DNA of 64,000 nucleotides from assembly GCF_003019035.1 (NCBI RefSeq), contig NZ_CP027447.1; one strand, written 5' to 3'. This document shows, piece by piece, positions 8,384 through 33,967 of this stretch. The position numbers and the translations under genes were made by a program. Under the pieces are notes generated by a model. That model worked only from the letters and a program-made list of their open reading frames with translations, ran no database searches and had not been told where the DNA came from. This DNA comes from Escherichia coli. GTDB taxonomy: Bacteria; Pseudomonadota; Gammaproteobacteria; Enterobacterales; Enterobacteriaceae. The first letter of the stretch is position 1. Each line of letters opens with the position of its first letter.

Positions 8384-8418
8384 TACTGGGGGGTAGTATC
8401 AGGTACTGGGGGGGAGTA
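8384..8418. promoter_or_regulatory. Two tandem RcnR operator sites (TACT-G6/7-N-AGTA) in the rcnR-rcnA divergent promoter region
   Basis: TACTGGGGGGTAGTA (8384-8398) and TACTGGGGGGGAGTA (8404-8418): G-tract flanked by TACT/AGTA inverted repeat, matching the described RcnR recognition motif. Confidence 0.8.
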
Positions 8419-8455
8419 GAATCAGATTGCCGAATTAATACTAAGAATTATTATC

Positions 8456-13456: not shown

Positions 13457-14131
13457 TTAAATTTTGTCACTAATATAGTTGCCATGGTCATCGATAATGG
13501 TCAGATGCCAGTTATTCGCATTATTACTTTTGACATTAATACTCTGACTTTCTAAGGGGGCAATCATAATAGTTTCATAATTGACTTTGACATTATTAGC
13601 TTTGACATCCGAAATCGTCACCCAATTTGCTGAGTCATTTTTTATCACCAATCCATTGCCACTGCGATTTACCCGTAACTTTTTAAATGTCGCTTTATTT
13701 ACCGGTGCAATACCCGCAGGCCGGTAAAACAATTTGATTCTGTTTTGCATTGCAAATTTCAGTGCATTCTTGCCCTCTTGCTCTGGACTATTTGGTGGAA
13801 TATCCAGAACATTCAGATAAAAAATGCTCTCTTTATTAGTGGGCAGTTTATTCGGCATAATTTTGATTTTTACTTGCTGCCCGGAATTTGCCCCTATTTT
13901 TGCCACTGGTGGCGTTAACATGAAAGGAACCTGAATTTTTTCTGGTGGTAACGACGTATCACCATCATCAATCCACGCCTGCAGCAGCGAAGAACGGTTT
14001 CCCTGATTCATCAACTGCACCATCACTTCTTTATTTTCTGCCGGGTAAATAATACGCGTCCCGTAGATAACAATACCGGCATGTGCAGGAAGGACCATAG
14101 AAGAAATGAGTAAAGCAAATAATCCTTTCAT
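13457..14131 (-). CDS. yehC: Periplasmic fimbrial chaperone (PapD-like), 224 aa
   Basis: Signal peptide MKGLFALLISSMVLPAHA followed by chaperone-like sequence; sits between major subunit and usher genes. Confidence 0.88.
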   Translation of the reverse strand: MKGLFALLISSMVLPAHAGIVIYGTRIIYPAENKEVMVQLMNQGNRSSLLQAWIDDGDTSLPPEKIQVPFMLTPPVAKIGANSGQQVKIKIMPNKLPTNKESIFYLNVLDIPPNSPEQEGKNALKFAMQNRIKLFYRPAGIAPVNKATFKKLRVNRSGNGLVIKNDSANWVTISDVKANNVKVNYETIMIAPLESQSINVKSNNANNWHLTIIDDHGNYISDKI

Positions 14132-14150
14132 CTTAATGCCTCTTAAATTA

Positions 14151-14180
14151 AAAGGCCGCCATGGGGATAGCGGCCATGTT
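14151..14180 (-). terminator. Putative intra-operon hairpin/attenuator between yehD and yehC
   Basis: GGCCGC..(9 nt)..GCGGCC hairpin (14155-14175); on the minus strand it is followed by a U-rich tract (plus-strand AAAA/TTAAATTAA); such partial terminators after the major pilin gene are common in fimbrial operons. Confidence 0.4.
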
Positions 14181-14211
14181 TATTACCTGGAGAAACTTGA
14201 AATTTTATTTA

Positions 14212-14754
14212 TTAATCCTGCGCCACACGCATAACCAGAGAAGATAACACATCACCTGATTGCACTGAATTATCTGTCAGCTTCAGGTATTTTGCTTTAA
14301 ACGGAATAGCATATTGACCTTCCGCTGTTTTATAACTCTCAATGTTAAAAGGTGCAGAAACATCCAGGACATCGCTGTTATCACCTAAATAGAGATAGTA
14401 CCCCACGGTATCGTTGCTACTGGCTATCGCCTTATCGTTTCCGGTTATTTTATCGTTGGTAATCAACGAGAGTTTTACACCAGCAACTTCTTTCGGACAG
14501 CTAATTTTTAACATGCTGCTGGTTACACCGACTGCATCATCATAGGTCGAGTATTTAGCTTTACCTTCAAAGACAGTGGTTGGTACAGTTGGCATATTAA
14601 TACTTACTGAATCGCCACCCGCTTCGAATTTACACGGAGATTCTGCAATATTCCCTTTAATGGTTAATGTTCCGGTATCAACGTCTGCGGCAAATACCCC
14701 AGCGCTCATAAAAAAAGAAGAAAAGACAGCGGCAGCAATAATTGAACGTTTCAT
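14212..14754 (-). CDS. yehD: Fimbrial major subunit-like protein, 180 aa
   Basis: Signal peptide MKRSIIAAAVFSSFFMSAGVFA, pilin-like size and conserved Cys pair; first gene of the cluster with long AT-rich upstream region. Confidence 0.9.
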   Translation of the reverse strand: MKRSIIAAAVFSSFFMSAGVFAADVDTGTLTIKGNIAESPCKFEAGGDSVSINMPTVPTTVFEGKAKYSTYDDAVGVTSSMLKISCPKEVAGVKLSLITNDKITGNDKAIASSNDTVGYYLYLGDNSDVLDVSAPFNIESYKTAEGQYAIPFKAKYLKLTDNSVQSGDVLSSLVMRVAQD

Positions 14755-15049
14755 AATATGTTCCTTAATAAAATTTATTTTTTGGTTGTTAAGAGTCTGT
14801 ATCTCTTGGAAACAAATTTCTCACATCAAAAAAGTTGCTGCAATGTAAACATATTGTTTTATTGATTTAAAACAAATTAACTATTGCAATATAAATACAA
14901 CAAATACTTAAGCATATTAAATATTTATCACATCTATTAATTAATGCGGATTTTTGTAAATGGTATTATTGATATCAATAAAAAAGCTGAAATCATTCAC
15001 ACGAATGATTTCAGCTTTCTAAATCCGATTAAAAAACCAGGGTGGCAAA

Positions 15050-15331
15050 TTAATCGTAGCGATTTAACACGATTCGACGTTTGCTATCGCTACCTGCAAC
15101 AACCACTTCTGTCGTTACACCTTTGACTGGCGAAGAAACCTGATGACGGGTATCAACATCATACGTTAACTGACCACAATGCTGTTGAGGTTGACCATTA
15201 ACCATAGCCATACTGCATGTTGGGGGACTGATCCTGCCATTAATCGTTAATGTGGCAGTCTGTGAAGAGAACGCGGGAGAAGCCATTCCATAGGCAAGAA
15301 AAATAATTCCTGACAGCCAGTACTTATTCAT
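15050..15331 (-). CDS. yehE: Small secreted protein of unknown function (93 aa) upstream of the yeh fimbrial genes
   Basis: Signal peptide MNKYWLSGIIFLAYGMASPAFS; recalled as YehE. Confidence 0.8.
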   Translation of the reverse strand: MNKYWLSGIIFLAYGMASPAFSSQTATLTINGRISPPTCSMAMVNGQPQQHCGQLTYDVDTRHQVSSPVKGVTTEVVVAGSDSKRRIVLNRYD

Positions 15332-15593
15332 TGAACGTTATCCCTGTAGTAAAGGTTATGCCTGGATAGAATGAGTGCATAACAAACTATAGCTGTACAT
15401 CCACTACACAGCCACGAAGGATGATAATGAAGCATTGCCTGTACGATCAATCGACTTTATAGAGTTTCGGACGAAGGTCCGCAGAATATTTGCAGCATTA
15501 AATAAGTGTTCATTAATGCGGCAAAAACAAATACACCGCATCAATGTAACATCTCTGCGGTGTATGAAAAACAACCAAAAAGGTTAATACGCG

Positions 15594-18913: not shown

Positions 18914-18945
18914 AAGGCGCTGCATCGACAGCGCCTTTTCTTTAT
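18914..18945 (+). terminator. Rho-independent terminator of metG
   Basis: AAGGCGCTG-catcga-CAGCGCCTT hairpin (18914-18937) followed by TTCTTTAT. Confidence 0.8.
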
Positions 18946-19044
18946 AAATTCCTAAAGTTGTTTTCTTGCGATTTTGTCTCTCTCTAACCCGCATAAATAC
19001 TGGTAGCATCAGCATTCAACTGGATAAAATTACAGGGATGCAGA

Positions 19045-22000
19045 ATGAGACACTTTATCTATCAGGACGAAAAATCACATAAATTCTGGGCGGTGGAGCA
19101 GCAGGGAAACGAGTTGCATATCTGTTGGGGAAAAGTTGGCACCAAAGGGCAAAACCAAGTAAAAAGTTTTGCGGATGCTGCGGCAGCGGCAAAAGCGGAG
19201 CTTAAGCTGATCGCGGAGAAGGTGAAGAAGGGATATGTGGAGCAAGCGAAGGATAATTCTTTGCAACCTTCCCAAACGGTAACGGACTCTCTCAAGGTAG
19301 CGGACTTATCCACCATTATTCAGGAACAACCCTCTTTCGTAGCAGAAACCCGTGCGGCTGACAAAAATACAGATGCTGTTTTACCGTGGCTGGCAAAAGA
19401 TATTGCTGTCGTTTTTCCGCTTGAAGTCGTACCCACCACCTTAAGCCATCGCCGCTTTCCCGGAGATCCTGTTACACCTGTAGATAAATTAACCCAGTTA
19501 CGTCGCTTAGCCTGTGGCGTGTCGCAACGGGATAACAAAACAGCTACATTTGACTTCAGCGCCTGTACTTTAGAGTGGCAAAACTTCATCGCTCAGGCGA
19601 TCGATCTGATTAACAGCCCGAAAACGACAAAATTACCATCACCGGTAATGGCTGTACTCGCGGCACTTGAACTGCACTGCACGAGATATAAAGAGCGTGA
19701 GGATGTTATGGATCAGATTATTCAGGAAGGCGGTCTGGAATATGCTACTGATGTAATAATACATCTTCAACAAATATCTATTGAATGGGATTATGTCAAC
19801 AATAATATTGTTTTCCTGTCGTCTGGCATTTCACCTGATTACTTGCAGCAATATTCCAGCTTTGAATTACGCCTACGTAAACATTTATCACTGGCGGAAG
19901 AGTCTCTCTGGCAAAAATGTGCACAAAAACTTATTGCCGCAGTTCCACATATTCCAGAATGGCGGCAACCATTAATTGCTTTGTTATTACCCGAAAAACC
20001 AGAAATTGCACATGAAATTGCCCAGCGTCTACTGGGGCAAAAGAAATTACCCTCGCTTGAGTGGCTAAAAATAGTGGCGACTGATGAGCACATTCTTGCC
20101 TCATTAGAAAAATATCACGAGCCATATGCCATTTTTGATGATTACTATTGTGGTGCGATATGGTCAGCCACCGTATTACAGGAGCAAGGTGTTGCAGCCC
20201 TGCCCCGATTTGCACCCTATGTCGCAAGTGACTACTGCGCCGATGTGTTGAGTCATATCAATCATCCGTTCGCATTAACACTGCTTATACGTGTAGCCGG
20301 GCATACTAAACGCTGTCACGATCGAATGACGAAAGCCTGCGCTGCGTTCCCACACGCAGCACTGGCAGCACTGGCGGAACTTCTAGTGCAAAAAGAAGAG
20401 AATAGTTGGCGCATTATGCTAATGACGATGCTTATCTCGCAACCTACACTAGCAGAACAGGTCATTCCCTGGCTTTCGACACCCGCAGTTGCAGTGCTGA
20501 AATCATGCCAGCAACAACTGAAACAGCCCTCAAACCATGCCAGTGCCGATCTACTGCCGGCCATAGTAGTCTCCCCACCATGGCTTTCGAAAAAGAAAAA
20601 ATCGCCGATTCCGGTGCTTGATTTAGCACCGCTCAACCTCGAATCCATATGCACAATAACCGACACAGAAGCTAAAGAGTTTCAAACTCATTGGGACTGG
20701 GAACCGCATAAGCCAGGTGAAGGTGCTAAAGATTTCCTTTACTCGCTGGGGTATCGCCGCTGGGATTTTGACACATATAAATATATCGGCGCTTCTGACT
20801 CGGCAATTGACGCATGGGAACGTGAGGACTTCGCTACACTCATCCAAATGTTTAAAGCCCACCATGCACCGTATCAGGGGGAGTGGCATCTCAACTCACT
20901 TCCCTTTTTACCTATGCAAAAAGCGATTAAACTATGGGAATTTCTCAGCAAAGAGCCGCATACCGCGGTAAAACCTGTCATGCTTTATTTGCGACTGGCA
21001 GGTATGAGTGGTTTTCTACACTCGTTTTCACGCTACCCTCAAGAAGGTTTTGCGGTTGCTAATTATTTTGCCGCAACGGAACTGGCTCCTGCCGTCGCCC
21101 GCGCCTTTAACAAACTCAAAACTCTACGACAAGACGCCCGCACCTGGCTGCTGAAATATCCGGAACATGCCATTACCGGCCTGTTGCCTGCGGCACTCGG
21201 CAAAGCCGGTGAATCCCAGGATAACGCCCGTGCCGCTTTACGTATGTTGATTGAAAATGGTTATCCGTCATTACTGCAAGAAATCGCCCAGCGTTATAAC
21301 CAGCCGGAAGTAACCGATGCGGTGAACGCTCTACTTGCGCTCGATCCCTTAGATAATCACCCGACTAAAATCCCGACACTTCCGGCCTTTTATCAGCCAT
21401 CGCTCTGGACGCGCCCGGTATTAAAAGCAAACGCCCAATCACTGCCAGATAGCGCCCTCTTCCACCTCGGTGAAATGCTCCGCTTCCCTCAGGAAGATAC
21501 GCTGTATCCGGGGTTATTACAGGTGAAAGACGCCTGTACTGCCGACTCACTGGCTGAGTTTGCCTGGGATCTGTTTACCGCCTGGCAGACCGCTGGCGTG
21601 CCGTCGAAAGAGAGCTGGGCGTTCACTGCATTAGGTGTTCTTGGCAACGATGACACCGCCCGCAAACTGACGCCATTAATCCGCGCCTGGCCTGGCGAAT
21701 CTCAGCATAAACGTGCCACCGTTGGGTTGGATATTCTCGCTGCTATCGGCAGCGATATCGCCCTGATGCAGCTTAACGGCATCGCCCAGAAACTGAAATT
21801 CAAAGCCTTACAGGAGCGGGCGAAAGAAAAAATTGCCGACATTGCCGAAAGTCGCGAACTCACAGTGGCAGAACTTGAAGATCGGTTAGCACCGGATCTC
21901 GGTCTGGATGATAACGGTTCGCTGCTGCTGGATTTCGGGCCACGGCAGTTCACCGTCAGCTTTGATGAAACCTTAAAACCGTTTGTGCGTGATGCTTCCG

Positions 22001-22833
22001 GCAGCCGCCTGAAAGACTTGCCTAAACCGAACAAAAGCGATGATGAAACCCAAGCGAACGATGCAGTTAACCGCTACAAACTGTTGAAAAAAGATGCGCG
22101 TACCGTTGCCGCCCAGCAGGTAGCAAGGCTGGAATCCGCCATGTGCCTGCGCCGCCGCTGGTCGCCGGAAAACTTTCAGCTCTTCCTGGTTGAGCATCCG
22201 CTGGTTCGCCACTTAACCCGCCGTCTGATTTGGGGCGTTTATAGCACCGAAAACGAGCTACTGGCTTGCTTTCGCGTGGCGGAAGATAACAGCTACAGCA
22301 CCGCAGACGATGATCTTTTCACCCTGCCGGAAGGCGATATCTCTGTTGGCATTCCTCACGTTCTGGAAATATCACCCACGGATGCTGCCGCCTTTGGTCA
22401 ACTTTTTGCCGACTACGAACTGCTACCGCCGTTCCGCCAGCTCGACCGTAACAGTTACGCCCTGACAGAAGCCGAGCGCAACGCCAGCGAACTGACCCGC
22501 TGGGCAGGCAGAAAATGCCCGAGCGGTCGGGTAATGGGGCTGGCGAATAAAGGCTGGATAAAGGGCACCCCGCAGGATGGAGGCTGGATCGGCTGGATGA
22601 TCAAACCTCTCGGTCGCTGGTCGTTAATCATGGAAATCAATGAAGGATTTGCAGTTGGTATGTCGCCAGCCGAACTCAGTGCCGAGCAACTCTTAAGTAA
22701 GCTGTGGCTATGGGAAGGCAAAGCGGAAAGCTATGGCTGGGGGAGCAATTCAACACAGGAAGCGCAGTTCTCCGTACTCGATGCCATCACCGCCAGCGAG
22801 CTAATTAACGATATTGAAGCCCTTTTTGAATAA
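19045..22833 (+). CDS. molR: Giant WGR-like-domain protein (1262 aa); intact molR-type ORF (pseudogene fragments in K-12)
   Basis: N-terminus FWAVEQQGNELHICWGKVGTKGQ.. fits a WGR-like domain; paralogous to the adjacent yehI over most of its length; continuous 3789-nt ORF without frameshift. Confidence 0.85.
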   Translation: MRHFIYQDEKSHKFWAVEQQGNELHICWGKVGTKGQNQVKSFADAAAAAKAELKLIAEKVKKGYVEQAKDNSLQPSQTVTDSLKVADLSTIIQEQPSFVAETRAADKNTDAVLPWLAKDIAVVFPLEVVPTTLSHRRFPGDPVTPVDKLTQLRRLACGVSQRDNKTATFDFSACTLEWQNFIAQAIDLINSPKTTKLPSPVMAVLAALELHCTRYKEREDVMDQIIQEGGLEYATDVIIHLQQISIEWDYVNNNIVFLSSGISPDYLQQYSSFELRLRKHLSLAEESLWQKCAQKLIAAVPHIPEWRQPLIALLLPEKPEIAHEIAQRLLGQKKLPSLEWLKIVATDEHILASLEKYHEPYAIFDDYYCGAIWSATVLQEQGVAALPRFAPYVASDYCADVLSHINHPFALTLLIRVAGHTKRCHDRMTKACAAFPHAALAALAELLVQKEENSWRIMLMTMLISQPTLAEQVIPWLSTPAVAVLKSCQQQLKQPSNHASADLLPAIVVSPPWLSKKKKSPIPVLDLAPLNLESICTITDTEAKEFQTHWDWEPHKPGEGAKDFLYSLGYRRWDFDTYKYIGASDSAIDAWEREDFATLIQMFKAHHAPYQGEWHLNSLPFLPMQKAIKLWEFLSKEPHTAVKPVMLYLRLAGMSGFLHSFSRYPQEGFAVANYFAATELAPAVARAFNKLKTLRQDARTWLLKYPEHAITGLLPAALGKAGESQDNARAALRMLIENGYPSLLQEIAQRYNQPEVTDAVNALLALDPLDNHPTKIPTLPAFYQPSLWTRPVLKANAQSLPDSALFHLGEMLRFPQEDTLYPGLLQVKDACTADSLAEFAWDLFTAWQTAGVPSKESWAFTALGVLGNDDTARKLTPLIRAWPGESQHKRATVGLDILAAIGSDIALMQLNGIAQKLKFKALQERAKEKIADIAESRELTVAELEDRLAPDLGLDDNGSLLLDFGPRQFTVSFDETLKPFVRDASGSRLKDLPKPNKSDDETQANDAVNRYKLLKKDARTVAAQQVARLESAMCLRRRWSPENFQLFLVEHPLVRHLTRRLIWGVYSTENELLACFRVAEDNSYSTADDDLFTLPEGDISVGIPHVLEISPTDAAAFGQLFADYELLPPFRQLDRNSYALTEAERNASELTRWAGRKCPSGRVMGLANKGWIKGTPQDGGWIGWMIKPLGRWSLIMEINEGFAVGMSPAELSAEQLLSKLWLWEGKAESYGWGSNSTQEAQFSVLDAITASELINDIEALFE

Positions 22834-22842
22834 GGAAAGAGC

Positions 22843-25800
22843 ATGGACAAGGAATTACCGTGGCTGGCGGATAACGCGCAACTGGAACTGAAATATAAAA
22901 AGGGTAAAACACCACTCAGCCATCGCAATTGGCCGGGTGAACCGGTGCCTGTTATCACTGAAAGCATCATCCAGACACTGGGTGATGAATTGCTACACAT
23001 TGCTGAGAAGAAAAAAAACATTGTCTGGCGTTATGATAATTTTTCACTGGAGTGGCAGTCCGCCATCACGCAGGCCATCAACTTGATCGGCGAACACAAA
23101 CCCTCAATCCCGGCCCGGACAATGGCGGCGCTAGCCTGTATCGCGCAAAATGATAGCCAACAGTTACTCGACGAAATCGTCCAACAAGAGGGACTGGAAT
23201 ATGCGACTGAAGTGGTGATTGCACGCCAGTTTATTGTACGGTGTTATGAGAGTGATCCTCTGGTAGTAACATTGCAGTATCAGAAGGAGGACTATGGCTA
23301 TGGCTATGGCTATGGCTATGGCTATGGCTATGGTTATCGCTCAGAAACCTATAACGAATTCGATCTCCGACTGCGTAAGCATCTCTCTCTGGCAGAGGAA
23401 AGCTGCTGGCAGCGTTGCGCCGACAAACTCATTGCCGCACTGCCAGGACTACCCCAAGTTCGCCGTCCTTTTATTGCACTCATCCTCCCGGAAAAACCAG
23501 AAATCGCCAATGAGTTGGTAGGCCTTGAATGCCCGTGGACTCATTTTCATTCTAAGGAGTGGTTAAAAGTTGTTGCTACTGACCACAGGGCAGTGGGAAA
23601 ACTCGAACGCTACTGGAGCCAGGATATATTTAGCGATCGCGAAGCCAGCTACATGTCGCATGAAAACCACTTCGGCTACGCGGCCTGCGCCGCCCTTTTG
23701 CGCGAACAAGGAATTGCAGCCGTTCCACGCCTCGCGATGTATGCCCATAAAGAAGATTGCGGTAGCCTGCTGGTACAAATTAACCATCCGCAGGTCATCC
23801 GCACCCTGCTGTTAGTTGCTGATAAAAACAAACCCAGCCTGCAACGTGTGGCTAAATACAGTAAAAACTTCCCCCATGCGACGCTTGCCGCACTGGCAGA
23901 GCTTCTGGCGTTAAAAGAACCGCCTGCACGCCCTGGTTATCCAATCATCGAAGACAAAAAGCTGCCTGCACAGCAAAAAGCTCGAGATGAATACTGGCGT
24001 ACGCTGTTACAAACGCTGATGGCATCGCAGCCACAACTGGCAGAAGAGGTGATGCCGTGGTTAAGTACTCAAGCCCAGGCAGTGCTGAATAGTTATTTAT
24101 CGGCACCGCCCAAAACGGTTATTGATAGCACCGATAACATCCAAATGCCTGAAATCCTCGTTTCACCACCGTGGCGTAGTAAGAAAAAAATGACAGTTCC
24201 ACGTCTTGATTTGGCACCGTTCGAATTAACGCCGCAAGTTTACTGGCAACCAGGCGAACGAGAGAGGCTTGCCGCCACTGAGTCTGCCCGTTATTTCAGC
24301 ACGGAATCTCTTGCGGAACGCATGGAACAAAAAAGTGGACGAGTTGTATTACAGGAGCTGGGTTTTGGAGATGATGTATGGCTGTTTTTGAATTATATAC
24401 TCCCCGGAAAACTGGATGCTGCACGCAATTCACTCATTGTTCAGTGGCATTACTACCCAGGGCGGGTTGAAGAGATCATGAATGGCTGGAGCTCCCCGGA
24501 AGCTCAATTAGCAGAACAGGCGCTTCGCAACGGTCACGTAGAAGTGTTAATTAACATATGGGAAAATGACAGCTACTCACGCTATCGTCGGGAAAAGAGT
24601 ATCTGGAACCTGTATTTATTGGCGCAGTTGCCGCGTGAGATGGCTTTGACTTTCTGGCTACGTATCAATGAGAAAAAGCATCTGTCTGCGGGTGAGGACT
24701 ATTATCTCAGTATCTTCGGATTGGATGCTCTACCAGGTCTGCTGTTGGCTTTTTCACATCGTCCAAAAGAAACATTTCCATTAATTTTAAATTTCGGCGC
24801 AACAGAACTGGCCCTGCCCGTTGCCCGCGTCTGGCGACGTTTCGCGGCGCAGCGTGATCTGGCTCGCCAGTGGATTTTACATTGGCCGGAACATACAGCT
24901 ACTGCACTTATCCCTCTTGTCTTCACCAAATCCAGCGATAATAGCGAAGCTGCATTACTTGCCCTGCGTTTACTTTACGAACAGGGACATGGCGAGTTAC
25001 TGCAAACCGTGGCAAACCGCTGGCAGCGTACAGATGTGTGGCCTGCCCTGGAGCAATTACTTAAACAGAGTCCAATAGAGATTTACCCGACACGCATTCC
25101 AAAAGCCCCTGATTTCTGGCAGCCGGCAATGTGGTCCAGGCCGCGCCTTATCACGAATAATCAACCTGTTACCGATGACGCTCTGGAAATTATCGGCGAA
25201 ATGCTGTGCTTTACCCAGGGCGGACGTTTTTATAGCGGACTGGAACAACTGAAAACTTTCTGCCAGCCGCAAACGCTGGCAGCTTTTGCCTGGGATCTCT
25301 TCACCGCGTGGCAACAAGCTGGTGCTACCGCAAAAGACAACTGGGCATTTCTGGCGTTAAGTCTCTTTGGCGACGAAAGCACGGCACGGGATCTGACGAC
25401 ACAGATCCTTGCCTGGCCACAAGAGGGCAAATCTGCCCGTGCTGTCAGTGGTCTGAATATACTTACTCAGATGAATAATGATATGGCACTGATACAGCTG
25501 CATCATATATCGCAACGGGCGAAATCCCGCCCCTTACGTGATAACGCGGCGGAATTTCTTCAGGTGGTCGCAGAAAATCGTGGGCTAAGCCAGGAACAGT
25601 TAGCGGACAGATTAGTCCCAACACTGGGTCTTGATGATCCGCAGGCGTTGAGTTTTGATTTTGGTCCCCGGCAGTTTACCGTTCGCTTTGATGAAAACCT
25701 TAACCCGGTTATCTTTGATCAGCAAAACGTTCGCCAGAAAAGCGTTCCCCGGTTGCGCGCCGATGACGATCAACTGAAAGCGCCCGAGGCACTGGCCCGA

Positions 25801-26505
25801 CTAAAAGGGCTAAAAAAAGATGCCACTCAGGTGAGCAAAAACCTGCTCCCACGTCTTGAAACTGCCCTGCGCACCACCCGACGCTGGTCGCTGGCAGATT
25901 TTCATTCTCTGTTTGTTAATCATCCCTTTACCCGCCTGGTTACTCAGCGATTGATATGGGCGGTTTATCCGGCAAATGAACCGCGTCGTTTACTCAACGC
26001 CTTTCGTGTGGCCGCTGAGGGGGAGTTCTGCAATGAGCAAGATGAGCCAATTGACCTGCCTGCCGATGCTCTGATTGGCATTGCCCACCCGTTAGAAATG
26101 ACAGCAGAAATGCGCAGTGAATTTGCACAGCTTTTTGCCGATTACGAAATTATGCCGCCTTTTCGCCAGTTGACGCGGCGCACAGTGCTGCTCACGCCTG
26201 ACGAGTCAGCCAGTAATAGTTTGAATCGCTGGGAAGGTAAATCTGCTACCGTTGGGCAGCTTATGGGAATGCGATACAAAGGCTGGGAGTCAGGCTATGA
26301 GAACGCATTTGTCTATGACCTGGGCGAGTACCGGCTGGTCCTTAAGTTTTCATCCGGTTTTAACCACTACAATGTTGATAGCAAAGCGCTAATGAGCTTC
26401 CGTTCTCTTCATGTATACCGTGACAATAAATCTGTCACTTTTGCCGAACTTGATGTGTTTGATTTGAGTGAAGCGTTAAGCGCACCCGACGTCATTTTCC
26501 ATTAA
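22843..26505 (+). CDS. yehI: Giant uncharacterised protein (1220 aa), tandem paralog of molR; C-terminal region of the type annotated DUF4132
   Basis: AAGGAAAGA RBS; shares blocks with molR (..QEGLEYATEVVI.., ..DLRLRKHLSLAEES.., ..GPRQFTVRFDE.., ..LFADYEIMPPFRQL..); contains in-frame Tyr-Gly repeat. Confidence 0.88.
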   Translation: MDKELPWLADNAQLELKYKKGKTPLSHRNWPGEPVPVITESIIQTLGDELLHIAEKKKNIVWRYDNFSLEWQSAITQAINLIGEHKPSIPARTMAALACIAQNDSQQLLDEIVQQEGLEYATEVVIARQFIVRCYESDPLVVTLQYQKEDYGYGYGYGYGYGYGYRSETYNEFDLRLRKHLSLAEESCWQRCADKLIAALPGLPQVRRPFIALILPEKPEIANELVGLECPWTHFHSKEWLKVVATDHRAVGKLERYWSQDIFSDREASYMSHENHFGYAACAALLREQGIAAVPRLAMYAHKEDCGSLLVQINHPQVIRTLLLVADKNKPSLQRVAKYSKNFPHATLAALAELLALKEPPARPGYPIIEDKKLPAQQKARDEYWRTLLQTLMASQPQLAEEVMPWLSTQAQAVLNSYLSAPPKTVIDSTDNIQMPEILVSPPWRSKKKMTVPRLDLAPFELTPQVYWQPGERERLAATESARYFSTESLAERMEQKSGRVVLQELGFGDDVWLFLNYILPGKLDAARNSLIVQWHYYPGRVEEIMNGWSSPEAQLAEQALRNGHVEVLINIWENDSYSRYRREKSIWNLYLLAQLPREMALTFWLRINEKKHLSAGEDYYLSIFGLDALPGLLLAFSHRPKETFPLILNFGATELALPVARVWRRFAAQRDLARQWILHWPEHTATALIPLVFTKSSDNSEAALLALRLLYEQGHGELLQTVANRWQRTDVWPALEQLLKQSPIEIYPTRIPKAPDFWQPAMWSRPRLITNNQPVTDDALEIIGEMLCFTQGGRFYSGLEQLKTFCQPQTLAAFAWDLFTAWQQAGATAKDNWAFLALSLFGDESTARDLTTQILAWPQEGKSARAVSGLNILTQMNNDMALIQLHHISQRAKSRPLRDNAAEFLQVVAENRGLSQEQLADRLVPTLGLDDPQALSFDFGPRQFTVRFDENLNPVIFDQQNVRQKSVPRLRADDDQLKAPEALARLKGLKKDATQVSKNLLPRLETALRTTRRWSLADFHSLFVNHPFTRLVTQRLIWAVYPANEPRRLLNAFRVAAEGEFCNEQDEPIDLPADALIGIAHPLEMTAEMRSEFAQLFADYEIMPPFRQLTRRTVLLTPDESASNSLNRWEGKSATVGQLMGMRYKGWESGYENAFVYDLGEYRLVLKFSSGFNHYNVDSKALMSFRSLHVYRDNKSVTFAELDVFDLSEALSAPDVIFH
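23293..23334 (+). repeat. In-frame hexanucleotide microsatellite (TATGGC)6 + TATGGT encoding a (Tyr-Gly)n tract inside yehI
   Basis: Six perfect TATGGC units 23293-23328 plus one TATGGT, in the yehI reading frame; absent from the paralogous position in molR. Confidence 0.9.
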
Positions 26506-26565: not shown

Positions 26566-26886
26566 ATGATCGTGCAAAAAGAGCTGGTCACTATTTACGA
26601 TTATGAGGCCCCTGTACCTGAAGAGCCGTTTTCCTTCAGACTTGAGATCCATAAATGCTCTGAATTATTTACAGGTTCCATCTACCGGCTGGAGCGATTC
26701 CGGCTACATCCAACATTTCATCAACGTGATCGAGAGGATATCGACCCGCTAATAAATGATGCGTTGATTTATATAAGAGATGAGTTTATTGATGAGCGAA
26801 AATTACGGGGCGAATCACCAGAAACGGTAATAGCCATTTTTAATCGTGAACTACAGAATATATTCAACCAAGAAATAGAAAAATAG
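26566..26886 (+). CDS. yehK: Small acidic protein of unknown function, 106 aa
   Basis: ORF with GGGGGAAGCG upstream; no recognisable motif; recalled as YehK. Confidence 0.8.
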   Translation: MIVQKELVTIYDYEAPVPEEPFSFRLEIHKCSELFTGSIYRLERFRLHPTFHQRDREDIDPLINDALIYIRDEFIDERKLRGESPETVIAIFNRELQNIFNQEIEK

Positions 26887-26940: not shown

Positions 26941-27030
26941 TTACTTCAACAAATCAATCAGCCGTAACAGAGCCACTAATAACTCCAGTACGGCAATGAG
27001 CACGGTTAACTTTTGTGTCAGCGTGTCCAT
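26941..27030 (-). CDS. zorO: 29-aa hydrophobic peptide, type I toxin-like (ZorO-like)
   Basis: Minus-strand ATG (27028-27030) with AAGGAGAG SD; translates to MDTLTQKLTVLIAVLELLVALLRLIDLLK, a single predicted TM helix; matches my recollection of ZorO from O157:H7; long structured 5' leader with an antisense target site. Confidence 0.65.
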   Translation of the reverse strand: MDTLTQKLTVLIAVLELLVALLRLIDLLK

Positions 27031-27268: not shown

Positions 27269-27352
27269 GTTGGAACACGATGTTGCACAGGCCGTGGTGT
27301 TAGGCCTGAAAGTAGTAAATAAAAGAACCTGCCTCACCAGCAGGTTTTTTTA
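27269..27352 (+). ncRNA. orzO: Candidate antitoxin sRNA (OrzO-like), ~80 nt, divergent from the toxin gene
   Basis: Starts ~7 nt after TATAAT; 5' seed GTTGGAACACGATGTTGCAC (27269-27288) is 19/20 identical to 27103-27122, so it is complementary to the toxin mRNA leader; internal hairpin CAGGCC..GGCCTG; ends in intrinsic terminator. Confidence 0.55.
27326..27352 (+). terminator. Rho-independent terminator of the candidate sRNA
   Basis: AACCTGC-ctcacca-GCAGGTT stem-loop followed by TTTTTTT. Confidence 0.8.
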
Positions 27353-27462
27353 TTTACTATGATCTGCTTTCCAGATATTTTCCGCTCAAACAACTAATGC
27401 GCCAAACATTTATTGCGCGTAAAATATCGTTTATTTCATTAATACATTTCAGGGATGAATAT

Positions 27463-28551
27463 ATGTCACCGCAGAATAATCATCTGCAGCGTCCGCCTGC
27501 CGCTGTGTTATACGCCGATGAACTGGCAAAATTAAAACAAAATGATCACGCACCTTGCCCGCCCGGTTGGCAGTTAAGTTTGCCTGCGGCCCGTGTTTTT
27601 ATCCTTGGCGACGAAGCACAAAATATTAGCCGTAAAGTCGTGATTAGCCCCTCCGCTGTCGAACGCATGTTAGTCACTCTCGCTACCGGGCGCGGTTTGA
27701 TGTTGGTGGGGGAACCTGGCACCGCAAAATCGCTCCTGTCTGAATTACTGGCAACCGCTATTAGCGGCGATGCCGGGTTAACCATCCAGGGCGGCGCATC
27801 TACTACTGAAGATCAAATCAAGTACGGCTGGAACTACGCCCTGCTTATCAACCATGGTCCGTCAACGGAAGCACTGGTCCCTGCCCCGCTTTACCAGGGA
27901 ATGCGCGACGGCAAAATCGTCCGTTTTGAAGAGATAACGCGTACACCGCTGGAAGTACAAGACTGTCTGTTAGGTATGCTTTCTGACAGGGTGATGACGG
28001 TGCCGGAGCTCACCGCTGAAGCCAGTCAGCTCTATGCGCGGGAAGGCTTTAATATTATTGCCACTGCCAATACCCGCGATCGCGGCGTCAATGAAATGAG
28101 TGCTGCGCTAAAGCGTCGTTTCGATTTTGAAACTGTCTTTCCGATTATGGATTTCGCTCAGGAGCTGGAGCTTGTCGCCAGTGCTTCGGCGCGTTTGCTG
28201 GCCCATAGCGGTATTCCGCATAAAGTGCCTGACGCGGTACTGGAGTTACTGGTCCGCACCTTCCGCGATCTGCGTGCCAACGGCGAAAAGAAAACGTCAA
28301 TGGATACACTAACAGCGATTATGTCCACCGCTGAAGCCGTGAACGTGGCCCACGCTGTGGGCGTCCGCGCCTGGTTTTTAGCGAATCGCGCAGGTGAGCC
28401 AGCCGATCTGGTGGACTGTATTGCCGGAACCATCGTCAAAGATAACGAAGAAGATCGCGCGCGTCTGCGCCGTTACTTCGAACAGCGAGTCGCCACACAT
28501 AATGAAGCTCACTGGCAGGCTTATTATCAAGCTCGCCACCGCCTGCCGTGA
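27463..28551 (+). CDS. yehL: MoxR-like AAA+ ATPase (CbbQ/NirQ/NorQ-type), 362 aa
   Basis: Walker A LMLVGEPGTAKS, Walker B-like KIVRFEEITR; start ATG 27463 (MSPQNNHLQRPP..) chosen over ORF-track 27397. Confidence 0.9.
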   Translation: MSPQNNHLQRPPAAVLYADELAKLKQNDHAPCPPGWQLSLPAARVFILGDEAQNISRKVVISPSAVERMLVTLATGRGLMLVGEPGTAKSLLSELLATAISGDAGLTIQGGASTTEDQIKYGWNYALLINHGPSTEALVPAPLYQGMRDGKIVRFEEITRTPLEVQDCLLGMLSDRVMTVPELTAEASQLYAREGFNIIATANTRDRGVNEMSAALKRRFDFETVFPIMDFAQELELVASASARLLAHSGIPHKVPDAVLELLVRTFRDLRANGEKKTSMDTLTAIMSTAEAVNVAHAVGVRAWFLANRAGEPADLVDCIAGTIVKDNEEDRARLRRYFEQRVATHNEAHWQAYYQARHRLP

Positions 28552-28561: not shown

Positions 28562-30841
28562 ATGAGCGAGCCGTTAATTGTCGGCATCCGGCATCATAGT
28601 CCGGCCTGCGCCCGGCTGGTGAAATCGTTAATCGAAAGCCAGCGGCCACGATACGTGTTGATTGAAGGCCCGGCTGATTTTAATGACCGGGTAGACGAAC
28701 TGTTGTTAGCCCACCAGCTTCCGGTAGCTATTTACAGTTATTGCCAGTATCAGGATGGTGCGGCCCCCGGGCGTGGTGCCTGGACGCCATTTGCTGAATT
28801 TTCGCCGGAGTGGCAGGCGCTACAAGCCGCACGTCGTATTCAGGCACAAACTTACTTCATCGATTTGCCTTGCTGGGCACAAAGTGAAGAAGAGGACGAT
28901 TCGCCTGATACGCAAGAGGAAAGCCAGACCTTGCTGCTGCGTGCCACCCGCATGGATAACAGCGACACCCTGTGGGATCACTTGTTCGAAGATGAAAGCC
29001 AGCAAACTGCATTACCCTCTGCACTGGCGCACTATTTTGCCCAACTGCGGGGCGACGCCTCCGGCGATGCACTCAATCGTCAGCGCGAAGCCTTTATGGC
29101 CCGCTGGATTGCATGGGCGATGCAGCAAAATAATGGCGACGTATTAGTCGTCTGCGGAGGCTGGCACGCTCCGGCACTGGCAAAAATGTGGCGCGAATGC
29201 CCGCAAGAAATTAACACGCCAGAATTGCTCTTACTGGATGATGCCGTTACAGGTTGCTATCTCACGCCATACAGTGAAAAGCGCCTTGATGTGCTGGCAG
29301 GATACCTTTCAGGAATGCCTGCCCCGGTCTGGCAAAACTGGTGCTGGCGGTGGGGCTTGCAGCAGGCAGGTGAACAACTGCTGAAAACGGTTCTTACCCG
29401 TTTGCGCCAGCACCACTTGCCTGCTTCAACAGCGGATATGGCTGCCGCTCATCTGCATGCGATGGCACTGGCACAGTTGCGCGGTCATACACTACCGTTA
29501 CGCACTGACTGGCTGGATGCCATAGCAGGATCGCTGATTAAAGAAGCCCTGAATGCGCCGTTGCCGTGGAGCTATCGCGGCGTTATTCATCCCGATACCG
29601 ATCCGATTCTGCTAACGTTGATAGACACATTAGCGGGTGACGGATTCGGTAAACTTGCCCCTTCTACGCCACAACCGCCTCTGCCAAAAGATGTCACCTG
29701 CGAACTGGAACGTACCGCAATCTCTCTTCCGGCGGAGCTTACCTTAAATCGCTTTACCTCCGATGGACTGGCGCAAAGTCAGGTGTTACATCGGCTGGTA
29801 ATACTGGAGATCCCAGGGGTTGTGCGCCAGCAGGGAAGTACACTGACACTTGCAGGCAACGGTGAAGAACGCTGGAAATTAACCCGCCCGCTTAGCCAAC
29901 ATGCGGCATTAATTGAGGCCGCCTGCTTTGGTGCCACACTCCAGGAAGCCGCACGCCATAAATTAGAAGCCGATATGCTGGACGCGGGTGGAATCGGCAG
30001 TATCACCACATGTCTTAGCCAGGCGGCGTTAGCGGGTCTGGCGTCCTTCAGTCAACAATTACTGGAGCAACTTACATTATTAATCGCCCAGGAAAATCAG
30101 TTTGCCGAAATGGGCCAGGCGCTGGAAGTGCTATACGCCTTATGGCGGCTGGATGAAATTAGCGGTATGCAAGGCGCGCAGATATTACAGACGACGTTAT
30201 GCGCAGCTATCGATCGCACACTCTGGCTGTGTGAATCCAACGGCAGACCGGATGAAAAGGAGTTTCACGCTCACCTGCATAGCTGGCAAGCGCTTTGCCA
30301 TATCCTGCGCGATCTACATAGCGGCGTTAATTTACCCGGCGTTTCGCTTTCTGCGGCGGTAGCCTTACTGGAGCGCCGCAGTCAGGCGATTCATGCCCCG
30401 GCGCTGGATCGCGGCGCGGCTCTTGGCGCACTAATGCGTCTGGAACATCCCAACGCCAGTGCCGAAGCGGCGCTGACGATGCTGGCGCAGTTATCCCCGG
30501 CACAATCCGGCGAGGCGCTGCACGGTTTGCTGGCATTAGCCCGTCATCAACTGGCCTGTCAGCCGGCATTTATCGCCGGTTTCAGTAGTCATTTAAATCA
30601 ACTGAGTGACGACGATTTTATTAACGCCCTGCCCGATTTACGCGCGGCGATGGCCTGGCTACCACCACGAGAACGCGGGACGCTGGCGCATCAGGTGCTT
30701 GAGCATTACCAGCTCGCACAGCTTCCCATTTCAGCGCTGCAAATGCCGTTGCATTGTCCACCGCAAGCCATTGCACATCATCAACAACTCGAACAGCAGG
30801 CACTGGCATCGCTGCAACACTGGGGAGTTTTCCATGTCTGA
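28562..30841 (+). CDS. yehM: Large uncharacterised protein (759 aa), second gene of the yehLMPQ cassette
   Basis: ATG 10 nt after yehL stop with GAGGAAAGA RBS; Ala/Leu-rich, no motif I can recognise by eye; stop overlaps yehP start. Confidence 0.85.
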   Translation: MSEPLIVGIRHHSPACARLVKSLIESQRPRYVLIEGPADFNDRVDELLLAHQLPVAIYSYCQYQDGAAPGRGAWTPFAEFSPEWQALQAARRIQAQTYFIDLPCWAQSEEEDDSPDTQEESQTLLLRATRMDNSDTLWDHLFEDESQQTALPSALAHYFAQLRGDASGDALNRQREAFMARWIAWAMQQNNGDVLVVCGGWHAPALAKMWRECPQEINTPELLLLDDAVTGCYLTPYSEKRLDVLAGYLSGMPAPVWQNWCWRWGLQQAGEQLLKTVLTRLRQHHLPASTADMAAAHLHAMALAQLRGHTLPLRTDWLDAIAGSLIKEALNAPLPWSYRGVIHPDTDPILLTLIDTLAGDGFGKLAPSTPQPPLPKDVTCELERTAISLPAELTLNRFTSDGLAQSQVLHRLVILEIPGVVRQQGSTLTLAGNGEERWKLTRPLSQHAALIEAACFGATLQEAARHKLEADMLDAGGIGSITTCLSQAALAGLASFSQQLLEQLTLLIAQENQFAEMGQALEVLYALWRLDEISGMQGAQILQTTLCAAIDRTLWLCESNGRPDEKEFHAHLHSWQALCHILRDLHSGVNLPGVSLSAAVALLERRSQAIHAPALDRGAALGALMRLEHPNASAEAALTMLAQLSPAQSGEALHGLLALARHQLACQPAFIAGFSSHLNQLSDDDFINALPDLRAAMAWLPPRERGTLAHQVLEHYQLAQLPISALQMPLHCPPQAIAHHQQLEQQALASLQHWGVFHV

Positions 30842-31970
30842 ACTGAACGATCTTCTGACCACCCGTGAGCTACAACGCTGGCGATTAATTCTTGGCGAAG
30901 CGGCAGAAACGACGCTTTGTGGGCTGGATGACAACGCCCGGCAGATAGACCACGCGCTGGAGTGGCTGTACGGGCGCGATCCTGAACGGCTCCAGCGTGG
31001 TGAACGCTCTGGTGGATTAGGTGGCTCAAATCTCACCACCCCTGAGTGGATCAACAGTATTCACACGCTGTTTCCGCAACAGGTGATTGAGCGACTGGAA
31101 AGCGATGCCGTACTGCGCTACGGCATTGAAGATGTGGTGACGAATCTCGACGTGCTGGAACGTATGCAGCCTTCTGAAAGCCTGCTACGCGCCGTTTTGC
31201 ACACCAAACATCTGATGAATCCCGAAGTACTGGCTGCCGCCCGCCAGATAGTGCGCCAGGTTGTTGAAGAAATTATGGCTCGACTGGCAAAGGAAGTTCG
31301 TCAGGCTTTTTCTGGTGTCCGCGATCGCCGTCGCCGCTCATTTATTCCACTGGCGCGAAACTTTGATTTCAAAAGTACTCTGCGCGCCAACCTGCAACAC
31401 TGGCACCCGCAACACGGCAAGTTGTATATCGAATCCCCCCGCTTTAACAGCCGCATTAAACGCCAAAGCGAACAATGGCAACTGGTCTTACTGGTTGATC
31501 AAAGCGGATCAATGGTGGACTCGGTGATCCACTCAGCGGTGATGGCGGCCTGTTTATGGCAGTTACCCGGTATTCGTACCCATCTGGTGGCGTTTGACAC
31601 CAGCGTGGTTGATCTCACGGCAGACGTTGCCGATCCGGTAGAGTTATTAATGAAAGTGCAATTAGGCGGCGGAACCAATATCGCCAGTGCCATGGAATAT
31701 GGTCGGCAACTTATTGAACAACCAGCGAAAAGCGTCATTATCCTCGTGAGTGATTTTTATGAAGGGGGTTCATCATCATTGCTGACGCATCAGGTGAAAA
31801 AGTGTGTCCAGAGCGGCATCAAAGTGCTGGGGCTGGCAGCGCTCGACAGCACCGCAACGCCTTGCTATGACCGCGATATGGCCCAGGCGCTGGTTAATGT
31901 TGGCGCACAAATAGCCGCAATGACACCGGGTGAACTGGCTACCTGGCTTGCGGAGAATTTGCAGTCATGA
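30834..31970 (+). CDS. yehP: von Willebrand factor A (VWA) domain protein with MIDAS motif, 378 aa
   Basis: ATGTCTGA overlap with yehM stop; MIDAS-like LVLLVDQSGSM (DxSxS); ORF-track 5' extension rejected. Confidence 0.9.
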   Translation: MSELNDLLTTRELQRWRLILGEAAETTLCGLDDNARQIDHALEWLYGRDPERLQRGERSGGLGGSNLTTPEWINSIHTLFPQQVIERLESDAVLRYGIEDVVTNLDVLERMQPSESLLRAVLHTKHLMNPEVLAAARQIVRQVVEEIMARLAKEVRQAFSGVRDRRRRSFIPLARNFDFKSTLRANLQHWHPQHGKLYIESPRFNSRIKRQSEQWQLVLLVDQSGSMVDSVIHSAVMAACLWQLPGIRTHLVAFDTSVVDLTADVADPVELLMKVQLGGGTNIASAMEYGRQLIEQPAKSVIILVSDFYEGGSSSLLTHQVKKCVQSGIKVLGLAALDSTATPCYDRDMAQALVNVGAQIAAMTPGELATWLAENLQS

Positions 31971-33967
31971 ATTCACTACGTCCGGAATTATTAGAACTGA
32001 CGCCGCAGGCCCTGACGGCGTTAAGCAATGCCGGTTTTGTTAAGCGCAGTCTTAAGGAACTGGAAAATGGCAACGTCCCGGAAATCAGCCATGAGAACGG
32101 CGCTTTAATCGCCACCTTCAGTGACGGTGTCCGTACCCAACTGGCGAGCGGTCAGGCACTGAAAGAGGCCCGGTGCAGTTGCGGGGCCAGCGGCATGTGC
32201 CGCCATCGCGTGATGCTGGTGTTAAGTTATCAGCGACTTTGCGCCACCACTCAGCCCACGGAAAAAGAAGAAGAGTGGCAGCCTGCAATCTGGCTGGAAG
32301 AACTGGCTACCCTGCCCGATGCCACCCGCAAACGTGCACAGGCGCTGGTCGCTAAAGGCATCACCATTGAGTTATTCTGTGCGCCGGGCGAAATTCCCTC
32401 AGCCCGCTTACCGATGAGTGACGTGCGTTTTTATTCCCGCAGCAGCATTCGCTTCGCCCGCTGTGATTGCATTGAAGGAACGCTGTGTGAACATGTCGTA
32501 CTGGCGGTACAGGCCTTTGTCCAGGCCAAAACTCAGCAGGCGGAATTTACTCATTTAATCTGGCAGATGCGCAGCGAACACGTCACATCATCTGACGATC
32601 CGTTTGCCAGCGAAGAAGGCAACGCGTGTCGTCAATATGTTCAGCAATTAAGCCAGGCATTATGGCTTGGCGGCATCAGCCAGCCGCTTATTCACTACGA
32701 GGCCGCTTTCAGCCGCGCGCAGCAAGCGGCAGAGGCCTGCAACTGGCGCTGGGTGAGTGAGTCACTACGACAGCTACGGGCAAGCGTTGATGCCTTCCAC
32801 GCCCGCGCCAGTCACTATCATGCCGGAGAATGCTTACGTCAGCTTGCGGTATTAAACAGTCGATTAAATTGCGCACAAGAGATGGCGCGCCGCGACAGTA
32901 TCAGTGAAGTTCCTCCCATGCCGTGGCGAACGGTGGTTGGCGCAGGCATTGCTGGCGAAGCAAAGCTTGATCATTTGCGGCTGGTGTCGCTAGGTATGCG
33001 TTGCTGGCAGGATATTGAGCAGTATGGTTTACGCATCTGGTTTACCGATCCCGACACCGGCAGTATTTTGCACCTTTCGCGCAGTTGGCCGCGAAGTGAA
33101 CAGGAAAACTCACCGGCAGCGACGCGTCGGCTGTTGAGTTTTCAGGCAGGCGCGCTGGCGGGTGGACAAATTGTTTCACAGGCAGCGCGTCGCAGTGCCG
33201 AAGGCGAACTGCTATTCGCGACCCGCAACCGCTTAAGTAGCGTTGTGCCGCTGTCGCCAGACGCCTGGAAAATGCTGAGTGCGCCGCTGCGCCAGCCAGG
33301 CATTGTGGCTTTACGTGAATATTTACGCCAGCGTCCCCCCGCCTGCATACGACCACTCAACCAGGTCGATAACTTATTTATTCTGCCAGTCGCTGAGTGT
33401 ATTTCACTCGGTTGGGATAGCAGCCGCCAGACACTGGATGCGCAGGTAATCAGCGGCGAAGGTGAAGATAACGTGCTGACATTATCCCTACCAGCCTCTG
33501 CCTGTTCGCCCTTTGCTGTTGAACGCATGGCGGCGCTTTTGCAACAAACAGACGACCCCGTGAGTCTGGTTTCTGGCTTTGTCAGCTTTGTAGAGGGGCA
33601 ATTGACACTGGAACCACGGGTGATGATGACAAAAACCCGCGCCTGGGCGCTGGACGCAGAAACTGCGCCTGTAGCACCGCTACCTTCTGCCAGCGTTTTG
33701 CCTGTGCCGTCTACCGCTCATCAGTTGCTGATGCGCTGCCAGGCGTTACTTATTCAACTGCTCCATAACGGCTGGCGCTATCAGGAACAGAGTGCTATTG
33801 GTCAGGCAGAGTTGCTGGCGAATGACCTCACCGCGGTGGGTTTTTATCGGCTGGCACATGTGTTGGGACAATTTCGTAATACAGAAAGCGAGGCACGGGT
33901 AGAAGCAATGAATAACGGTGTTTTGCTTTGCGAACAATTATTCCCCATGCTTCAGCAACAAGGATGA
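31967..33967 (+). CDS. yehQ: SWIM zinc-finger protein, 666 aa
   Basis: ATGA overlap with yehP stop; two CxCxnCxH SWIM-type motifs (ARCSCGASGMCRHRV and ARCDCIEGTLCEHVV) in the N-terminal third. Confidence 0.88.
   Translation: MNSLRPELLELTPQALTALSNAGFVKRSLKELENGNVPEISHENGALIATFSDGVRTQLASGQALKEARCSCGASGMCRHRVMLVLSYQRLCATTQPTEKEEEWQPAIWLEELATLPDATRKRAQALVAKGITIELFCAPGEIPSARLPMSDVRFYSRSSIRFARCDCIEGTLCEHVVLAVQAFVQAKTQQAEFTHLIWQMRSEHVTSSDDPFASEEGNACRQYVQQLSQALWLGGISQPLIHYEAAFSRAQQAAEACNWRWVSESLRQLRASVDAFHARASHYHAGECLRQLAVLNSRLNCAQEMARRDSISEVPPMPWRTVVGAGIAGEAKLDHLRLVSLGMRCWQDIEQYGLRIWFTDPDTGSILHLSRSWPRSEQENSPAATRRLLSFQAGALAGGQIVSQAARRSAEGELLFATRNRLSSVVPLSPDAWKMLSAPLRQPGIVALREYLRQRPPACIRPLNQVDNLFILPVAECISLGWDSSRQTLDAQVISGEGEDNVLTLSLPASACSPFAVERMAALLQQTDDPVSLVSGFVSFVEGQLTLEPRVMMTKTRAWALDAETAPVAPLPSASVLPVPSTAHQLLMRCQALLIQLLHNGWRYQEQSAIGQAELLANDLTAVGFYRLAHVLGQFRNTESEARVEAMNNGVLLCEQLFPMLQQQG

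Follow-up and report, generated by a model that had tools for sequence, protein, structure and literature searches.

MolR and YehI of Escherichia coli: paralogous giant proteins encoded beside a conserved MoxR-vWA gene set, and their possible role in a remodelling machine linked to DNA damage

What is the role of two adjacent genes that each encode a protein of more than 1200 amino acids? The question is raised by molR and yehI, which lie side by side in a stretch of 64,000 nucleotides (nt) of Escherichia coli DNA (RefSeq assembly GCF_003019035.1, contig NZ_CP027447.1), hereafter called the window. A sequence-only reading of the window had reported two open reading frames (ORFs) of 1262 and 1220 amino acids (aa), and both coordinates and lengths were exactly as claimed (Table 1). 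The two ORFs are separated by 9 nt, with metG upstream and yehK, yehL, yehM, yehP and yehQ downstream. In the searchable literature we found no function for molR, no functional study of yehI, yehM, yehP or yehQ, and no paper on DUF5682, the family of YehM. The reading that we favor, with a probability of roughly 0.5, assigns MolR and YehI to a MoxR-vWA (von Willebrand factor A) remodelling machine linked to DNA damage, in which they would serve as HEAT-repeat subunits with an adaptor or sensor role.

MolR and YehI were compared by BLASTP, which gave 680 bits (E = 0), with 37% identity and 53% positives over 1190 columns. An alignment of this length and strength identifies the similarity as homology, far above chance, in agreement with what the sequence-only reading had deduced from shared blocks. 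The blocks (E/D)LRLRKHLSLAEES, GPRQFTV(S/R)FDE and LFADYE..PPFRQL were found in both proteins, and QEGLEYAT was found in YehI but not in MolR, which reads QEGGLEYAT. The alignment begins at MolR residue 110 and YehI residue 2, so YehI corresponds to MolR minus its first ~109 residues. As a sequence observation the pair is ordinary and already known, since RefSeq annotates a 'WGR and DUF4132 domain-containing protein' and a 'DUF4132 domain-containing protein YehI'. A homologue search with whole MolR gave E. coli sequences alone. For distant relatives a library clustered at 50% was used, in which the family counts 6028 representatives with E ≤0.001.

The domain anatomy of the two proteins gives a first indication of what they might do. 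MolR, whose N-terminus reads MRHFIYQDEKSHKFWAVEQQGNELHICWGKVGTKGQ, had been described as WGR-like at this end, and this was confirmed twice: by a Pfam match to PF05406 (E 3.7e-17, 62.6 bits) and by a predicted model, with a beta-sheet and a helix, that superposes on the WGR domains of PARP1 and PARP3. In the structure model search the same fold matched PDB entry 2ra8. With YehI, in a query begun at aa 21, Pfam gave no match to WGR. The body of MolR is predicted to be a HEAT/ARM-like alpha-solenoid, with stacked helical hairpins resembling known repeat proteins, and a MolR profile run against PDB sequences gave matches limited to alphaRep and HEAT proteins. A UPF0102 match (E-value 0.31) falls within the helical region and was dismissed as noise. 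DUF4132, for which a domain search had been proposed, was matched in both proteins and covers profile positions 1-179 of 179 in MolR and 3-179 in YehI. Invariant polar residues are concentrated in this domain, without an assignable motif; in MolR numbering, the invariant acidic ones in and near DUF4132 are D904, D946 and D999. The WGR domain of MolR would most likely bind a nucleic-acid end or nick.

The genes located downstream suggest the context in which such a domain may operate, and yehLMPQ, to which the sequence-only reading had drawn attention, proved the most productive lead. yehL, encoding a MoxR-type AAA+ ATPase, lies close to yehP, encoding a vWA protein with a metal ion-dependent adhesion site (MIDAS), in one operon whose genes yehL, yehM, yehP and yehQ overlap or nearly touch. 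YehL has given its name to one of seven MoxR subfamilies (PMC3893208). With Walker A, MIDAS and both SWIM motifs intact, the engine genes yehL, yehP and yehQ look functional in the window. We scanned one genome per species with the C-terminal half of MolR, obtained 76 loci, and examined these by tblastn with YehL, YehM, YehP and YehQ from the window. Homologues of all four genes were present in 49 of the 76 loci, invariably colinear and on the same strand. In 46 loci they lie directly downstream of the DUF4132 gene (median gap 120 nt); in Burkholderia they precede it, and seven further loci are partial, mostly on cut contigs. The taxa concerned include Enterobacterales, Burkholderiales, Xanthomonadales, Neisseriales, Trichlorobacter and Mycolicibacterium, with both Proteobacteria and Actinobacteria among them. 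The reverse test, starting from DUF5682/YehM, gave the order WGR+DUF4132, AAA_5, DUF5682, VWA_CoxE, SWIM in all three sampled contigs. Judged by gene order, a WGR-DUF4132 gene together with yehL, yehM, yehP and yehQ is a conserved five-gene module.

The link to DNA damage comes from the region in front of molR. A predicted terminator-like hairpin parts metG from the molR transcription unit, and just ahead of the molR start codon there is a palindrome, CTGGATAAAATTACAG, resembling the LexA (SOS) box. In Escherichia whittamii, Klebsiella oxytoca and Escherichia sp. E1V33 this box likewise precedes the array's first gene. One-mismatch sites of the LexA type are not enriched in the window (22 found against 17.6 expected, not above chance), and the case for the box therefore rests on position and conservation. 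molR is listed among the LexA-regulated genes of K-12 with a known SOS box, with citation of work from 2000-2001 (PMC6590174, Table 1). In Deinococcus, DRA0166 (DUF4132) and DR2173 (WGR) are controlled by DdrO/IrrE and induced by mitomycin C (PMC8533742).

How could these elements function together? In the reading we favor, MolR and YehI would be giant scaffolds in which a long HEAT-like alpha-solenoid ends in the DUF4132 alpha/beta module. They would represent the variable, multi-copy subunits of a machine whose engine comprises YehL (ATPase), YehP (vWA/MIDAS adaptor), YehM and YehQ. The MolR-type copies would carry a PARP-like WGR on a flexible tether, sensing a nucleic-acid end or nick, and YehI, as a copy that lost WGR, may pair with MolR or serve as an alternative adaptor not targeted to DNA. 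Since the array sits behind a LexA box, the proteins would be made upon DNA damage in Escherichia and Klebsiella. SOS induction would thus be the first step; WGR would then dock the solenoid at a DNA lesion or end, the MIDAS of YehP would engage the DUF4132 scaffold or its client, and the YehL ring would spend ATP on remodelling a protein-DNA complex or clearing it away. What the analysis shows is the homology of the pair, the domains and the WGR fold, the linkage of the genes, the variation in copy number, purifying selection and the sequence of the LexA box; binding to DNA, formation of a physical complex with YehLMPQ and remodelling activity are what we infer in this scheme. It is tempting to go further and speculate, more tentatively, that the module could be an undescribed and widespread five-component ATP-driven sensor of DNA ends or lesions with interchangeable, diversifying HEAT-repeat subunits, acting as an SOS-linked clearance pathway or as a chromosomal immune system.

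Several points weigh against this reading. The tie of MolR and YehI to YehLMPQ consists of gene linkage only, and the linkage count is biased upward, as the 76 loci are those of the nearest MolR relatives (at least 50% identity); beside two remoter DUF4132 proteins (P0241, P0213) the yehLMPQ neighbours were absent. In E. coli itself, yehK and a toxin-antitoxin insertion split molR-yehI from yehLMPQ. In addition, yehL and yehM are up-regulated in K-12 hns/stpA mutants and are silenced by H-NS in K-12 (PMC3686432). Given the split and the silencing, co-expression of the two gene blocks is not assured. The MolR motif is W-G-K, with Lys30 replacing the Arg of W-G-R; the consensus among its relatives at this motif is G-R-I-G-T. 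Upstream of the other ~70 orthologues no LexA box was detected at one core mismatch, in a scan that did not include the LexA motifs of Xanthomonadales, Actinobacteria and Myxococcota. SOS control would thus be lineage-specific, the box having been found only in Escherichia and Klebsiella. Finally, one or more module genes are pseudogenes in six of the eight E. coli genomes inspected, which indicates that the module is dispensable under many conditions.

The number of giant genes per locus varies considerably. A single WGR-DUF4132 gene is present in Erwinia, Serratia, Edaphovirga and most betaproteobacteria, two or three copies are found in Escherichia and Klebsiella, and Massilia and Duganella have arrays of 4-7 DUF4132 matches per locus. 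Some of these arrays adjoin one yehLMPQ set, suggesting several adaptors per engine. The old tandem duplication proposed for molR and yehI is upheld as far as paralogy is concerned, but the history holds more than one duplication: E. whittamii, K. oxytoca and many E. coli carry three paralogs in the order A-B-yehI. Gene A sits between metG and the molR-type gene (for example in E. coli 41EC2, O157:H7 and AVS0710), and 1644 of 5426 E. coli genomes (about 30%) contain its body. Over its first 200 nt, molR of the window is 94% identical to A and 86% to B, while over nt 400-1500 it is 98-100% identical to B and 30-49% to A. It therefore looks like an A/B recombinant, in which a crossover within the similar WGR-coding 5' ends would have removed the body of A. 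The two-gene layout is shared by K-12. In a rough neighbour-joining tree of the C-terminal half, B grouped with the single Erwinia gene and A was sister to both. YehI stood on a long branch, ~40% identical to every WGR-bearing relative, the betaproteobacterial ones included; MolR is 57% identical to its Variovorax orthologue. YehI would thus have either evolved fast after the loss of WGR or split off earlier, and its position in the tree may be a long-branch artefact.

Variation within E. coli is equally pronounced. The locus is present in 5410 of 5426 genomes and adjoins metG in all eight inspected, as well as in K. oxytoca and Escherichia sp. E1V33. Few E. coli records, 139 of 5412, reach 95% nucleotide identity to molR of the window; the molR of strain SCU-301 is 100% identical to it. 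The divergence peaks in a central segment that is 46-71% identical in nucleotides to the K-12 and 41EC2-B alleles, with flanks at 91-100%. The window's allele of this segment was found in 649 of 5426 genomes, and the E. coli alleles fall into at least two or three classes that are deeply diverged. Compared with ECOR29, the proportion of nonsynonymous differences in the segment (pN) is 0.33 and that of synonymous differences (pS) 0.54-0.68, with synonymous divergence near saturation and a ratio of nonsynonymous to synonymous rates (dN/dS) of 0.24-0.46. Since pS is raised as much as pN, positive selection was rejected, and the segment is best described as old diverged alleles and not recent adaptive change. 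Against the same strain, dN/dS was 0.27 for molR, 0.18 for yehI and 0.02-0.14 over DUF4132, and dS was 0.31 for the locus and 0.096 for metG. These ratios argue clearly for purifying selection on the intact alleles. An in-frame hexanucleotide repeat in yehI varies in length by strain: K-12 has DYGYGYR (2-3 units), the window DYGYGYGYGYGYGYGYR (7 units) and SCU-301 five more GY. It is mainly in this repeat that the window differs from SCU-301.

Such variability is also what one would expect under the main rival explanation, namely that the module provides immunity against phages or other mobile DNA, with the DUF4132 giants as diversified sensors, WGR detecting foreign DNA ends, and YehLMPQ acting as an ATP-driven switch or effector. 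The variable paralog number, with arrays of up to about seven copies, the deeply diverged central alleles at a locus with a dS three times that of metG, and the frequent independent pseudogenes all fit this idea. So does the insertion of toxin-antitoxin modules at one and the same junction both in E. coli and on a metagenome contig unrelated to it. Moreover, YehM of Mycolicibacterium is 53-60% identical to its proteobacterial orthologues (Lysobacter, Variovorax), unexpectedly high across phyla, which suggests horizontal transfer of the whole module. Against it, the PADLOC-DB v2 models matched none of the eight proteins, and Pfam and profile searches of the module proteins gave no effector domain recognisable as a nuclease, NADase, protease or pore. 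The near-universal presence in E. coli at a constant position next to metG does not resemble a mobile defense locus either, and the locus was found in none of 50,697 phage records and in 31 of 72,556 plasmid records, several of which have the size of a chromosome. Strong PHROG matches were disregarded, as they are to nearly identical sequences of E. coli, which probably stem from host DNA flanking prophages. Finally, dN/dS is below 1 throughout, the variable segment included. On balance we consider an immune function rather unlikely, although the cofactor-insertion and decay explanations that follow are less likely still.

The role generally ascribed to MoxR proteins is that of a maturation chaperone (PMC3893208). 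Could the module, then, insert a metal or cofactor into a client enzyme, as CoxD-CoxE, NorQ-NorD and CobS-CobT do, with MolR and YehI as scaffolds? This would rescue the old 'molybdate metabolism' label, as 'molybdate metabolism regulator' serves as protein name in some sources. It would also agree with the match of YehP orthologues to VWA_CoxE, with weak matches of YehL to GvpN and MadB, and with a weak match to cobaltochelatase of an extended ORF overlapping yehP. By contrast, no conserved candidate client enzyme stands beside the module in the three sampled contigs, and WGR and SWIM indicate nucleic acid rather than a metalloenzyme. DNA-damage control in two phyla fits the idea badly; in Deinococcus, molybdenum genes did not respond along with the DUF4132 and WGR genes (PMC8533742). 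The K-12 gene behind the molybdate label is, moreover, a pseudogene. We therefore regard a maturation chaperone as improbable.

A state of decay was the other explanation to consider, in which the E. coli locus would be a remnant without current function and the intact state of the window incidental. The sequence-only reading had held molR to be intact here and broken in K-12, and this proved correct. In a K-12-type O16:H48 genome molR is annotated 'frameshifted; internal stop', owing to a TGA at codon 275, within the conserved ELRLRKHLSLAEES block, and to an additional G near codon 946; yehQ also has an internal stop. The survey of pseudogenes, a small sample based on the annotation of eight E. 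coli genomes, showed two or three disrupted genes each in K-12 (molR, yehQ) and O157:H7 (A, B, yehM), along with lesions in 41EC2 (yehL, yehM), SJ3 (yehM), AVS0710 (yehK, yehP) and HM670 (yehK, yehM). In addition to the H-NS silencing of yehLM in K-12 mentioned above, the tolerance of a transposon in the region by ST131 sublineages argues for decay: in sublineage L1a, the blaCTX-M-15 transposon TnMB1860 disrupts DUF4132 genes of the metG/DUF4132/yeh region in 184 isolates (PMC9334617). Nevertheless, comparison of intact alleles gives clear evidence of purifying selection (dN/dS 0.06-0.27, with 0.02 reached in parts of DUF4132), none of the seven genes is disrupted in the window, SCU-301 or ECOR29, and the module is conserved across phyla. 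Some of the frameshifts, in long-read assemblies, may be sequencing or assembly errors. Intact MolR of 1262 aa is widespread in E. coli, with several 90%-identity clusters each on at least 1000 contigs, indicating that an intact molR is ordinary in the species and not peculiar to the strain of the window. Decay is thus doubtful to much the same degree as the chaperone. The K-12 lesions have another consequence: because that strain carries molR and yehQ as pseudogenes, the absence from the literature of a five-component system such as that speculated on above would be explained, and this is one likely reason why no function is recorded for molR despite its long LexA listing.

Finally, a transcription factor regulating molybdate metabolism, as the historical name implies, is very improbable: source records do say 'MolR family transcriptional regulator' and in one review WGR counts as the domain by which 'MolR-like TFs' bind DNA (PMC7824862), but a Pfam search of MolR detected no helix-turn-helix or other transcription-factor domain, WGR and DUF4132 being the sole matches, MolR, with its 1262 aa, is built as a solenoid and is linked to an ATPase module, and the molybdate label itself was rejected for lack of sequence support, for lack of a client enzyme nearby and because the K-12 gene is a pseudogene.

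The junction between yehK and yehL deserves a separate description. yehK is annotated as frameshifted in two of eight E. coli genomes. Between yehK and yehL lies a single-copy zorO-orzO type I toxin-antitoxin locus, with the toxin encoded by a 29-aa ORF (MDTLTQKLTVLIAVLELLVALLRLIDLLK) and the OrzO-P antitoxin RNA matching Rfam RF02083 (98.9 bits). Because of this insertion, the gap between the two genes is 576 nt in the window, compared to ~300 nt in K-12; the arrangement has been described for O157:H7 (PMC2887945). On a JGI metagenome contig (L090), a MazE/PIN toxin-antitoxin pair (positions 8106-8779) occupies the same junction, between the WGR-DUF4132 and AAA_5 genes. Two genes upstream on this contig is rmuC, a LexA-regulon member in E. 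coli, possibly by coincidence. The longest ORF of yehL begins at 27397 (384 aa), while the RefSeq start is at 27463 (362 aa), and the extra 22 codons (27397-27462) overlap the end of the OrzO region. Farther upstream, GC content falls to 0.36-0.37 at 14000-15500, at the yehD/yehE end of the yehABCD fimbrial operon, upstream of apbC.

Table 1. Positions of the features discussed, numbered from the first nucleotide of the window.
Feature	Position	Strand	Description
Hairpin after metG	18914..18937	+	Terminator-like; 9-bp stem with 6 GC pairs, then T run
LexA (SOS) box-like palindrome	19020..19035		10 nt before molR ATG; one mismatch to CTGT-N8-ACAG, AT-rich spacer
molR-type gene	19045..22833	+	1262 aa, intact; WGR, disordered linker, HEAT-like helical solenoid, DUF4132, C-terminal alpha+beta subdomain
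WGR domain	19060..19251	+	MolR aa 6-69; motif W28-G29-K30-V-G-T
Flexible linker (predicted)	19255..19419	+	MolR aa ~71-125; predicted local distance difference test score (pLDDT) 40-63; YehI starts just past the equivalent point
K-12 lesion 1	19867..19869	+	Codon 275; TTA (Leu) in the window, TGA in K-12
Central diverged segment of molR	20545..21145	+	600 bp, aa ~500-700, directly after invariant PPW motif
K-12 lesion 2	21878..21885	+	+1 G, GATCGG(G)TTAGC; window ~21880, codon ~946
DUF4132 of MolR	22000..22557	+	aa 986-1171; Pfam PF13569 E 1.8e-51; modelled pLDDT >90
yehI	22843..26505	+	1220 aa; molR paralog without WGR and linker
Hexanucleotide repeat (CTATGG) x 8.3	23292..23341	+	In frame in yehI, encodes (GY)n
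DUF4132 of YehI	25732..26286	+	aa ~964-1148; Pfam E 1.2e-46, query from aa 21
yehK	26566..26886	+	106 aa; GC 0.40 (neighbours 0.50-0.55); seen in Escherichia loci only
zorO-orzO	26941-27030	-	Type I toxin-antitoxin, first part
zorO-orzO	27276-27351	+	Type I toxin-antitoxin, second part
yehL	27463..28551	+	MoxR-family AAA+ ATPase; Walker A GEPGTAKS; orthologues labelled AAA_5
yehM	28562..30841	+	DUF5682 protein, 759 aa; Pfam E 4.8e-97
yehP	30834..31970	+	vWA protein; intact MIDAS motif DQSGS; orthologues labelled VWA_CoxE
yehQ	31967..33967	+	Two SWIM CxCx6CxH zinc-finger motifs, aa 69-80 and 166-177

What makes these findings valuable is a conserved five-gene module, linked to SOS, that is open to study in natural strains carrying it intact. 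The proposal is testable now, as intact alleles are common, the module is conserved across phyla, and ECOR29 and SCU-301 are fully intact. If the module does form a machine that responds to DNA damage or foreign DNA, this would reveal a new branch of the SOS response and a bacterial role for a PARP-type WGR sensor.

How does the module compare with known systems? A structural counterpart of the MolR N-terminus outside the PARP proteins, Q64V53 of Bacteroides fragilis (PDB 2ra8), matches the WGR fold in a protein of 362 residues without DUF4132, and is functionally uninformative. Unlike in PARP1, PARP2 and PARP3, the WGR of MolR is not followed by an ADP-ribosyltransferase domain; it is tethered via a disordered linker of ~50 residues to a HEAT solenoid, and the Arg of its motif is replaced by Lys. 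Deinococcus radiodurans DRA0166 and DR2173 share the DUF4132 and WGR domains and the induction by DNA damage (PMC8533742), but there the two domains are on separate proteins at separate loci, and the regulator is DdrO and not LexA. By sequence, the AAA module of YehL is closest to the AAA modules of midasin (Rea1/Mdn1; E 2e-9). Midasin joins MoxR-like AAA modules, a long helical linker and a MIDAS domain, and strips proteins from a nucleoprotein particle. It does so as one polypeptide of 4,700-5,000 residues on pre-ribosomes, whereas the parts of the module are separate proteins, and the analogy is architectural only. The MoxR/vWA pairs RavA-ViaA, CoxD-CoxE and NorQ-NorD are alike in that the gene for an AAA_5-type ATPase lies near that for a vWA protein with an intact MIDAS. 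The characterised MoxR systems are without DUF5682, a double-SWIM protein and a WGR-DUF4132 giant; the module has all three, and they look obligate.

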